Made by a program: the position numbers and the translations under genes | The notes under the pieces: generated by a model | The model's database searches: none | What the model was told of the DNA's origin: nothing | The model's input: the letters and a program-made list of their open reading frames with translations, nothing else | Shown: positions 9,521 through 59,638 of the stretch, piece by piece | How the letters are laid out: every line of letters begins with the position of its first letter | How positions within the stretch are numbered: the stretch's first letter is position 1 | Source of the DNA: Octopus vulgaris | Taxonomy: Eukaryota | NCBI GenBank assembly: GCA_951406725.2 | Contig: OX597814.1 | Location: 60,264,001-60,328,000, forward strand | DNA length: 64,000 nucleotides | Direction: 5' to 3'

Positions 9521-11184
9521 CCAAAAAAAAAAAGAAGAATTTCGTTTCGTTCATTTTCTTAGTAAACTGGATCGATTTGTTTATTAATTAAAGGAATATT
9601 CTTTTCTTTTTACTTCTTTTTACTTATTTCAACTACAATATATGAAGCAGTCACCTTGGAATCTTTCCCAGTTTCTTTTAAAATAGGATTGGAAATGCTG
9701 ATCAAAAGGAGACGATCATAGTTAATCTCTATAAAATATCAATCTTTTCAATGTAAGAGTTTATAAATATTACTTTACTGAGAAGTATTCCCTAATCATC
9801 CTTCTGTTTAATACTAATTTTCTTTTTATATATATCAATATATCACTTACATACATATGTGAACAGCTAGGCACAATATAACACCATGACAGAAAGATTT
9901 TATCGTCACTAATTGTGCCTTAGTGTGCCGAAGCACCTATATTGCAAGAAATAGAAGCTAAAAACCCTTAATGTTGCATGAAGCGCACAGGGGAGACATC
10001 CATCACATAAATTACTAGGATCACTGGATTAGTTTCGCCAATCAGTCGTAAGCCCCTCAGAGGTGACTGCTCAACAGCTCGCTGGTTTCGCCAACATACA
10101 TATATGAATAGATATATATATATAGACATACATATGTACAGACTCTTATATATATATATATGTTTCTTTTCCTATGATTAGTAGTGGAATAAATACAGAA
10201 GTCGTACAATTTAAGTTTATATTTTTACTTTATTTTCTATATAATATAATGACATTTAGTTTTAGAAGAACTTTTTATCAAACAGATATAAATGAATATT
10301 TAAGTGAAAACTGTGAAAATCATCTTGTGTAGTATTAAACACAAACAGTACTAAATTTAACCAGAGGAACAAAGTGTATTTTTGCATTAGAAGATTAGGC
10401 AAAAAATTCCGATAACCATCATAGGACCTGACAAAATAAATAAACCCAATAAATCGCATCATAATATTTAGGAAGAGACTCCATAGTACATTTTCGACTT
10501 AATTTTCTAATTTTCCCTTGCGAAAATTTGTTTCTTCAAATTATTTTCTAATAATCCTAAAAATATCTTAATGTTTTATGTAAAATATCGTAATGTTTTA
10601 TGTAAAAATAATTTAATTATTTCGGAGATGTACTTGTTTGGCGGGTGCAAAACCACTAACTTCTCTTCGTCATTTATAATTTAGTGTCAAAACGTTCGTC
10701 GTGCTAATAGATGCTTAAAAGAAGTTAAGATGTTTTTTGTGATTTTGAATGGTTAATATGCGTCTTCCAACCTGTAAGTGCTAATCATTAGATTACAATA
10801 TGTATAGATATGGAAACCGTACAATACATGTTTATTAAGCAGGTTTTAAATTTCAATGAAGATTTCGTAGATGTTCATTTATAATTACGTATATCAGATA
10901 TCAGACTTTAGAATTGAAATTAAAAGTTTAATTTTTACGTTCAGCACACGAAGATAAGAATTAGGATGAATGTAGAAGCCGCACAATATAATCTTTAGTG
11001 CTACAGACGCTAGGTTACAATGGTGATTTAGAAAATTTTCAAATCTACACACCCATTCATGTTTGCTTGATAAGGATTTTGCTTTGTTAAATCATACAGT
11101 TCTATATTTAAGAGATGAGGAATTATATGCATTATTTACATTATTTACATTTGACGGAAATTTGTCCTCATCTTGTTTGTTGTT

Positions 11185-11230
11185 AACACAACGTTTCGGC
11201 TGATATACCCTCCAACCTTCATCAGGTGTC
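11185..11230 (-). ncRNA. Minimal type-I hammerhead ribozyme, canonical core
   Basis: GACAC-CTGATGA-A-GGTTG-GAGGGTATAT-CAGCC-GAAA-CG-TT-GTGTT; stems I and II pair; stem III is the palindrome AACGTT. Confidence 0.8.
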
Positions 11231-11287
11231 TTGGGGGAAATTTCGAATTTTCGATGTTATTATTGTTGTTATTATTATTATTATTAA

Positions 11288-11344
<57 letters not shown>

Positions 11345-12058
11345 TATTATTATTATTATTATTCAGGTCACTGTCTGGAATCGAACTCAGAATCCTGGGG
11401 TTATTAGCCTGTTTTTGGTCATATTCTCTTCTACTGGTGGTTTTACTCGGAGATATTTGCGAAGTGCCATATTACTCTTGAATACTGTCCTGATATCATA
11501 TGGTCCGCATATCTTTTGTATCTTTTCGAAGAGGCCTTTCACATAGGGTAGACAGACATTGTACAGTTTATTGATTTCATCCTCTCTTTTCTTCATACTT
11601 GGAGTGGATAGTATGTTTTTCGGGTAGTTGTTGCTTAATAGATTGTTACTGAGCTTGATCATTTCTTCGTGGTGGGTATCACGATCGCTACATATATACT
11701 TTCCTCCAATCCCTCTCTTTACACTGTATGGATGGTGGGAAGTAAAGTTGAGGTATCGTCCAGTGAAGGTCGGCTTGCGGTATACGGATATCCTGAATCC
11801 AAACTTGGTGCGTGTTATTAATACGTCCAGGAATGCTAGCTGATTGACTTCTTCCTTTTCCATTGTGAACTATATGGATGACTTTATTGAGTTCACATGA
11901 TCTAATACAACTTGATTTATAGGCCCTAAAATTCACTCTATAATTGCCCACGAGAATACGGCGTAGTGGTTAAAGGTCGCGGGCTACTAACCCCAAGATT
12001 CCGAGTAATAATAATAATAATAATTAGGAATGAGAACCCGGGTTCGAAATTTTCCAAA

Positions 12059-12104
12059 GACACATGATGAAGACTAGGGGGTATATCAGCCGAAACATTG
12101 TGTT
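12059..12104 (+). ncRNA. Mutated copy of the same hammerhead
   Basis: GACAC-ATGATGA-AGACTAG..CAGCC-GAAA-CATT-GTGTT; C3 and stem III altered. Confidence 0.55.
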
Positions 12105-12592
12105 AACAACAAACAAGATGACAAAAATCCGTCAAATGTAAATAATGTAAAAAACTGTTAAATCATAGGTTGATATTTTATGCGAAAATATAAACTTGCC
12201 TTGTAAGGTTTCTACATAAAGCTCCCTTTATAATTTTTGCACGTAAAACATTTCTCACAACGTTATTAAATAAAACTACCTCTTACCAAGATTATGAGAA
12301 AATCATTTTAAAATGAAATTTTTGTAGATTAATTTTGAACATCATAGGAGACAAGAGAAGATTCGATAATCTACGTGAAAATAAAAAAAATTTTATCCTA
12401 TTAGAACAGACACATGTATGGAGAGATTGCCGTGACAATGTTTATATCACAGACGCTAAATTTCATAGAAAATTACGAAATATTCAATTCAAAATACATA
12501 TATATGAGGATGAGTTCTTCAACTTAAAATATCATAAAATGTTATCCATTATTTTATATAACAAAATTATATTTGTATTATACGCTTTCTCT

Positions 12593-12758
12593 GCGCGCGT
12601 ATGTGTGTGCGAGCGTGCGCATGCGTGTGCGTGCATGCGTGTGCGTGCATGCGTGTGCGTGCATGCGTGTGCGTGCATGCGTGTGCGTGCATGCGTGTGC
12701 GTGCATGCGTGTGCGTGCATGCGTGTGCGTGCATGCGTGTGCGTGCATACGCGTGCGT
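12593..12758. repeat. 14-bp tandem repeat (GCGTGTGCGTGCAT)n
   Basis: About nine near-perfect units; strict purine-pyrimidine alternation. Confidence 0.9.
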
Positions 12759-12970: not shown

Positions 12971-13226
12971 CATACATATATATACACATATTTATAAATA
13001 AATATATATATTTCTGTACATATATGTGTGTGTGTGTGTGCATATATAAATGTATATGCCATAATTTGTTCATCCCTGATCACTTTAATTACCTATTACT
13101 GCTCGATAATCGACTGACGCTTTCATATATAAATGTATGTTAAGTTCTAACACGAGATATTTAGTATCGATATGCCTAAGGGAAATAATAATAATAATGA
13201 TAATAATAATAATAATGATAATAATA

Positions 13227-50184: not shown

Positions 50185-50288
50185 CGCTCTTAACCACTAC
50201 GCCATAAGCCCGTGAGTGAGTATATGGTGTAATGGATAAGAGCGCGGGCTTCTAACCTCAAGATTCCGAGTTCGATTCCAGGCAGTGA

Positions 50289-50323
<35 letters not shown>

Positions 50324-50350
50324 GTAATAATAATAATAATGATAATAATG

Positions 50351-50387
<37 letters not shown>

Positions 50388-50640
50388 CCTTATCAGACGG
50401 GTAGTCATGATGGGTATACAGAGCTTCGTATATTTACCCCAGTGTCACTTTGATGGCATGCACTGCTCTCTCACTCAATAATAATAATAATATCGAAAAA
50501 TACCTTAGGTATGAGAATCCCTGTTCGAAATTTCCTCAAGATATCTGAGGAAGGCTGGAGTGTATATCAGCCGAAACGTTGTGTTATCAACAAATAAGAT
50601 GAGGACAAATATCCGTCGAATGTAAATAAAGTACATAATG
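50185..50640 (+). mobile_element. tRNA-like head + (TAA)n + hammerhead unit (same family as 11130-12150)
   Basis: A-box TGGTGTAATGG, B-box GAGTTCGATTC, (TAA)n, HHR at 50540-50585; duplicate at 55616-56067. Confidence 0.8.
50540..50585 (+). ncRNA. Minimal type-I hammerhead ribozyme
   Basis: GATAT-CTGAGGA-A-GGCTG-GAGTGTATAT-CAGCC-GAAA-CG-TT-GTGTT; duplicate at 55967-56012. Confidence 0.75.

Positions 50641-54582: not shown

Positions 54583-59638
<5,056 letters not shown>

Follow-up and report, generated by a model that had tools for sequence, protein, structure and literature searches.

A tRNA-derived head as a candidate internal RNA polymerase III promoter in the pseudo-LTR of an octopus Penelope-like element

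Introduction

Retrotransposons are usually split between coding elements transcribed by RNA polymerase II (Pol II) and non-coding SINEs, which RNA polymerase III (Pol III) transcribes, and to our knowledge the promoters of Penelope-like elements (PLEs) have been mapped in very few cases. In the anole PLE called PAc, the ORF starts inside a hammerhead ribozyme and reverse transcription is primed 111–118 nt into the ORF, the element's protein binding and priming in the tail, as set out in the available portion of PMC11167929. According to the accessible text of PMC8557442, a zinc finger in the linker separates Neptune/Nematis from Penelope/Poseidon PLEs. Non-LTR retrozymes have been proposed as non-autonomous derivatives of PLEs (bioRxiv 10.64898/2026.07.22.740005 and PMC7229834), and the available sections of those two papers make no mention of Pol III. 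SINEs themselves cannot encode protein (PMC5786205, in the section available).

The literature covered also includes the accessible parts of PMC4209133, PMC8967140, PMC13282606 and PMC2377424; in the published literature, mostly at the level of titles and the opening lines of abstracts, no PLE with a tRNA-type head was found, and the family described here may already have been deposited in Repbase or Dfam. A PLE that codes for its own enzyme and yet has a tRNA-derived Pol III promoter would, if true, be unusual. Here we describe a candidate of this kind, starting from one insertion in a 64,000-nt stretch of the Octopus vulgaris genome (contig OX597814.1, positions 60,264,001 to 60,328,000; hereafter the window), which the initial annotation had read as a possible PLE-dependent SINE.

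Results

A decayed copy in the window

The locus is a single insertion of 1,059 bp (11097-12155) bounded by a 12-bp target duplication, with two inverted arms around a reverse transcriptase (RT) fragment. Its features, in window coordinates, are as follows.

11085-11096, no strand: left copy of the 12-bp target-site duplication, identical to 12156-12167; these are the only two occurrences in the window
[quoted passage not shown]
11185-11230, minus: minimal type-I hammerhead with intact core and palindromic stem III (sequence); predicted cut after GUU at 11190
11231-11256, minus: shortened linker, in which a deletion took out the family start codon (arm alignment and family frame)
11257-11363, minus: expanded (TAA)n tract (sequence)
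11364-11409, minus: 3' half of the tRNA-derived head, B box at 11388-11377, A box deleted (93.5% to the family unit)
11411-11914, minus: PLE ORF fragment, the C-terminal part of the RT plus linker, ending directly ahead of the GIY-YIG region (90.7% to the family unit)
11914-11951, plus: start of the inverted arm, with the ORF end, a short 3' UTR and, in front of the head, a small hairpin (family comparison)
11952-12006, plus: 5' part of the tRNA-derived head, A-box-like motif at 11959-11969, B box deleted (sequence, arm alignment)
12007-12024, plus: (TAA)n tract (sequence)
12030-12032, plus: family start codon, sharing the frame of the 838-aa ORF of tandem elements
12059-12104, plus: hammerhead relic, mutated in core and stems and predicted inactive (sequence, family alignment)
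12105-12155, plus: PLE tail, short form (family alignment)
12156-12167, no strand: right copy of the target-site duplication, identical to 11085-11096

Read on the minus strand, the left arm runs from the RT fragment through the 3' half of the head, (TAA)n and hammerhead to the tail; the right arm, on the plus strand, runs from the ORF end through UTR, 5' part of the head, (TAA)n and hammerhead to its own tail. The initial annotation was thus right, by sequence and by family alignment, in placing a PLE RT fragment between two inverted arms. It had also described tRNA-like sequence with Pol III boxes in both arms: boxes do lie at or near the places it gave, but each arm has one box only, and the first T of the A-box-like motif in the right arm (11959-11969, plus strand) is changed to C. 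Because the B box is lost in the right arm and the A box in the left, the window copy has no intact promoter. The (TAA)n tracts and hammerhead motifs reported for the two arms are likewise in place, except that only the left hammerhead is intact; in the right one, core position C3 is changed and pairing in stems II and III is broken. The GIY-YIG region, said to be lacking, is indeed absent from this copy, where an internal deletion of ~390 nt fuses the RT linker to the middle of the head, but the loss is confined to the window copy and the family carries an endonuclease region. Neither Rfam nor ARAGORN made a hammerhead or tRNA call on the window copy, and identification of both parts therefore rests on motifs, spacing and alignment. 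Genome-wide, the RT fragment drew 6,948 first-look candidate matches, 150 of which were scored. The window copy is ordinary debris, and the finding resides in the family.

Other repeats of the window deserve mention. Two near-identical short copies that start at the head (50218-50640 and 55639-56067), a duplication ~5.4 kb apart, retain A and B boxes and have another repeat inserted in their (TAA)n tracts. LINE-like open frames of up to 491 aa start directly behind (TAA)n tracts, from window position 13110 onward and at four other loci (L032, L127, L132 and L235); LINEs found behind such tracts, those of this PLE included, seem to target TAA repeats. A tandem array of a 14-nt unit occupies 12595-12758.

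The family is an endonuclease-bearing PLE

The genome searched comprises 2.8 Gb in 227 contigs, and the family unit is a majority consensus of copies built by script. The consensus tandem unit is 2,655 nt long, with one 838-aa frame (RT plus a GIY-YIG-type region) and the order head, (TAA)n, start codon, hammerhead, tail, rest of the ORF, 23-nt UTR, next head. The ORF opens ~110 nt past the head start and upstream of the hammerhead; a relative that is 55% identical has the peptide encoded by the ribozyme as well. ORF starts were sampled at 30 loci out of 77 matches; head, (TAA)n, hammerhead, tail and ORF start follow one another in direct order in L364, L365, L372, L383 and L389, and L372 and L383 begin at the head and continue into the ORF. 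At the other end, RT is followed by the GIY-YIG-type region, a stop, a short UTR and the same head in 24 of 29 other RT-anchored loci, 25 of the 29 reaching the UTR. The family alignment bears out what the initial annotation had proposed, a PLE with a tRNA-derived head that lies upstream of (TAA)n and hammerhead. In the aligned copies this head is a fixed part of the autonomous element, lying between the stop codon and the next start codon.

An RVT_1 match (E 7.7e-9) falls in the neighbouring RT part of locus L047, and 1,573 homologs carry RVT_1, PF28514 and PF26215, with PF01541 in 3 of the 120 homologs listed. Profile search gave no direct PF01541 match in the family region; the endonuclease region aligns at 22–34% with PF01541-positive frames of the same genome. 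The family thus has an endonuclease region and does not resemble the endonuclease-deficient (Athena/Coprina) PLEs. No zinc finger is present between RT and endonuclease, as read from the translation, whereas a control family has a cysteine cluster there; by the linker distinction drawn in the available part of PMC8557442, this absence indicates the Penelope/Poseidon type. On domain content and linker, rather than on a tree, we class the family as an endonuclease-positive PLE of that type. Tandem and inverted pseudo-LTRs, a tail and a hammerhead within the pseudo-LTR are all present. Copies are ~5–6% diverged outside CpG and the longest open frame among those seen is 569 aa, with no intact ORF, so the family looks decayed and inactive.

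Control PLE families of the same genome were found via PF01541; the matches to a distant PLE protein query were largely places already assigned to the present family. One control family, at L341-L344 (G000:C16, C17, C6) and many other places, is young, with intact 781-aa frames, a Neptune-like linker cysteine cluster and an upstream frame of 327–401 aa. Its UTR contains repeated CCAAT/CRE-like motifs. Instead of a head, a second PLE family of the genome has a long UTR in which, as judged by eye, motifs resembling CCAAT, CRE and TATA elements recur.

The head and the hammerhead

The head is 74 nt long, and its A and B boxes, both of consensus sequence, stand 45 nt apart, which is the spacing of a tRNA. 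No more than 14 of the 21 stem pairs survive, and both boxes are intact in 37 of 90 copies. The closest host tRNA, among 35 distinct sequences from 30 loci (an incomplete set), is tRNA-Arg(TCG). A tRNA-related head such as defines SINE2 elements is thus present in the family consensus and not in the window copy. No such A/B boxes lie behind the ORF in any of 33 PLE relatives from other organisms. The initial annotation had a PLE capture a SINE head. A SINE as the source, rather than a tRNA gene, is not supported by the loci examined (~1.2 Mb), in which no parent SINE was seen: only 2 of 343 head matches fall below 80% identity, and both belong to this family.

The consensus and the left arm of the window copy both have CUGANGA, GAAA, stems I and II, a palindromic stem III and an NUH cleavage triplet, and the consensus folds stems I and II; the core is intact in 31 of 132 copies. 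The hammerhead module lies downstream of the head in 78 of 90 head-anchored loci. At three loci (L071, L083 and L084) head and (TAA)n are present but the hammerhead module is missing from the surrounding 1.5 kb; these could be true head-only copies or interrupted ones. At L186, at least seven tRNA-Cys-like genes are clustered within 3 kb.

Short copies outnumber coding copies and share their source

Copy counts were taken from exact 20-mer patterns in the genome. Matches numbered 536 for the endonuclease region, 896 for the UTR, 5,148 for the head and 8,740 for the hammerhead; reversed controls of the head and hammerhead patterns gave 0 matches, so the motifs noticed at the start are not chance. 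Corrected for decay, these become ~1,600, ~2,050, ~22,700 and ~25,500 copies, a rise of 6- to 11-fold within 57 nt, or roughly 2,000 coding against 20,000+ short copies.

One could envision the short copies as an independent PLE-dependent SINE of head plus hammerhead, with master copies of its own and a 3' end freed by self-cleavage, which is essentially what the initial annotation proposed. When solo units were counted against ORF-linked ones, as it had suggested, the solo units came out far ahead, with 66 of the 90 loci anchored on the head lacking any stretch of the ORF within 1.5 kb; together with the downstream hammerhead module at most of these loci, and the precedent for a Pol III promoter joined to a hammerhead in Schistosoma (PMC6765202, as far as the available text goes), this would fit such a SINE. 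However, short copies (62 loci) and ORF-linked copies have the same majority base at every column compared and share four dimorphic sites at similar frequency. No diagnostic base separates the two, so the short copies come from the same source elements, and a separate self-cleaved SINE fails; no separate SINE lineage appeared in this comparison, and the separateness that marks a SINE2 is thus missing. Self-cleavage fares no better as the maker of the 3' end, because ends close to where the ribozyme would cut are seen in just 2 of 115 arms, whereas 108 of 115 end in two clusters 45–115 nt beyond it, and this two-cluster pattern is the PLE tail signature. With the head itself residing in the autonomous element, as the RT-anchored loci indicate, we consider an independent SINE quite improbable. 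The short copies look younger (divergence 4.8%, vs 6.2% for ORF-linked ones), but we put this down to ascertainment, as the copies had been anchored by exact matches. The copies are dispersed and do not form the head-to-tail arrays bounded by the ribozyme cut that characterize retrozymes and Sm-alpha repeats.

Less plausible still is an origin of the short copies at the DNA level, through pseudo-LTR recombination or duplication, rather than by retrotransposition of short RNAs. Some loci are indeed segmental duplicates (L083/L084, and the window copies at 50.2 and 55.6 kb), but recombination would leave a variable length of upstream ORF and not a sharp edge, and the short copies have PLE tails and inversions.

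5' ends gather at the start of the head

The initial annotation had proposed to check whether 5' ends pile up at the tRNA-like start, and in both of two sets they do. In the head-anchored set (90 of the first 100 head matches listed, all on contig 1), 61 of 90 ends fall in a 20-nt zone at the head start, 13 lie further inside and 16 upstream. A second, independent set took the hammerhead as its anchor and comprised 91 arms in 76 insertions, all within the first 22.7 Mb of contig 1. Of its 41 insertions at risk, 27 end in that zone; 14 more end in (TAA)n, where insertions break the chain. The rate of ends per nt is 0.033 in the zone, 0.0037 inside the head and ~0.002 upstream, where samples are small; this is ~9-fold over the local rate (P 4e-11).

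The main rival to a promoter at this position is a passive head, a piece of tRNA or SINE sitting in the pseudo-LTR of an element transcribed by Pol II, with the copies stopped by fold-back of the cDNA on a hairpin. A small hairpin (-2.8 kcal/mol) does lie at the left edge of the zone, 55 of 76 hammerhead-anchored insertions are inverted, many inversion junctions are centred on the hairpin, and inverted, 5'-truncated arms are normal for PLEs (PMC8557442, in the portion available). The hairpin sits exactly where the ends gather, and its left edge is the apparent starting point of the inversions centred on it, so the peak is partly built in or inflated. However, the hairpin is weak, and upstream hairpins of equal or greater stability collect no ends (0/9, 0/8 and 0/6); moreover, among non-inverted copies only, 12 of 16 (one a duplicate) also end at the head start. 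Nor would a passive head account for boxes that have stayed intact though the stems decayed. We therefore judge hairpin-driven truncation at a passive head to be fairly unlikely, and return below to a promoter in the head as the preferred reading.

Absence of oligo-T runs

Pol III terminates at runs of four or more T. The sense strand of the 2,655-nt consensus unit has zero such runs, and at no position is one present in 12% or more of copies (coverage 24–87). Synonymous shuffles gave a mean expectation of 3.05 runs (P 0.025), and all seven codons able to create a T run use C. Base composition is the same in two further PLE families of the genome, and these have 8–9 runs per ORF. Relatives from metagenomes (80 loci clustered into families, matched ones having 19–25% T and at least 900 nt) offer a further comparison, in which all 22 composition-matched PLE relatives have runs, at 2.7 per kb, and the 8 intact ones predict 7.3; this test sets a consensus against single copies, and natural copies of the family have 0.7 runs per kb.

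RTE-like LINE frames in the genome have only about 1 run per kb, and two box-less PLE-related metagenome frames (L414:147-1562 and L420:288-1646) have 1 run each in ~1,400 nt at 27–29% T. Phe is somewhat scarce in the family ORF (2.6% vs 3.2%), which lowers the number of runs to be expected. As a Pol III signal, the absence of oligo-T is suggestive and not decisive; a passive head leaves it unexplained.

RNA data

Three raw RNA-seq runs of one study were analysed (~6% of each read), their species label differing from that of most runs with the family. Both directions are covered to the same depth, which tracks copy number in stepping up at head and hammerhead, and 82–84% of reads continue into the flanks. 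No pile of read starts was seen at the head in these three runs, of a library type poor for Pol III products. This pattern fits passive transcription of old copies, and the passive look of the reads counts in favor of a passive head. Contigs from three runs with three further species labels cover the endonuclease region, head and hammerhead, and in two of those three runs single contigs bridge UTR and head.

Discussion

From the sequence of the copies, we think that the head probably is an internal Pol III promoter within the pseudo-LTR. Each head, the downstream one of any insertion included, would start an RNA a few bases upstream of its A box; the element's protein would bind and prime in the tail and copy back to the RNA start, and the cDNA end would often fold back on the small hairpin to give head-to-head arms. 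Short RNAs from any head would include the tail region needed by the protein and would be copied in the manner of SINEs. Short, SINE-like copies would thereby reach their 10-fold excess with no SINE lineage of their own.

That the same promoter also transcribes the whole ORF, and so makes the mRNA, is a more tentative proposal that we hold to be possible but somewhat doubtful. Oligo-T terminators would then be absent because Pol III would read the entire ORF. The need to translate an uncapped RNA with a short upstream AUG counts against it.

If these proposals are true, a PLE with A and B boxes blurs the division between Pol II and Pol III elements, one promoter giving rise to both the mRNA and SINE-like passengers, and would exemplify in nature the translation of a long ORF in an RNA made by Pol III. 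There would also be a direct route from a PLE to promoter-plus-hammerhead repeats resembling Sm-alpha. In annotation, these 20,000+ short copies could end up classed as tRNA-SINEs, although what they represent is the ends of a PLE.

The octopus family resembles Penelope of Drosophila virilis and PAc of Anolis in its single ORF with RT plus a GIY-YIG-type region at the C terminus and no linker zinc finger. It also has, as those elements do in the available portion of PMC11167929, tandem pseudo-LTRs, inverted truncated arms, a hammerhead overlapping the ORF start and a two-cluster tail. Unlike them, it has a tRNA-type A/B-box head and no oligo-T in the unit. With the SINE-like Sm-alpha and Sj-alpha repeats of Schistosoma it shares a Pol III-type promoter followed by a hammerhead (PMC6765202, accessible text); those repeats, however, are non-coding tandem repeats with monomers cut by the ribozyme, whereas the octopus module resides in a coding element and ends off the cut site. 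Non-LTR retrozymes, as presented in the available sections of bioRxiv 10.64898/2026.07.22.740005 and PMC7229834, are similar in being short, ORF-less units with type-I hammerheads akin to pseudo-LTRs, but they form tandem arrays with a hammerhead per unit, and the octopus copies are dispersed as single or inverted insertions. Finally, SINE2 elements and the AviRTE-dependent ManaSINE1 likewise join a tRNA-derived A/B-box head to the recognition end of a retrotransposon (PMC5786205 and PMC4844689, each as available in part); in those systems the head is found on the non-autonomous partner only, whereas in the octopus the autonomous element itself carries it.
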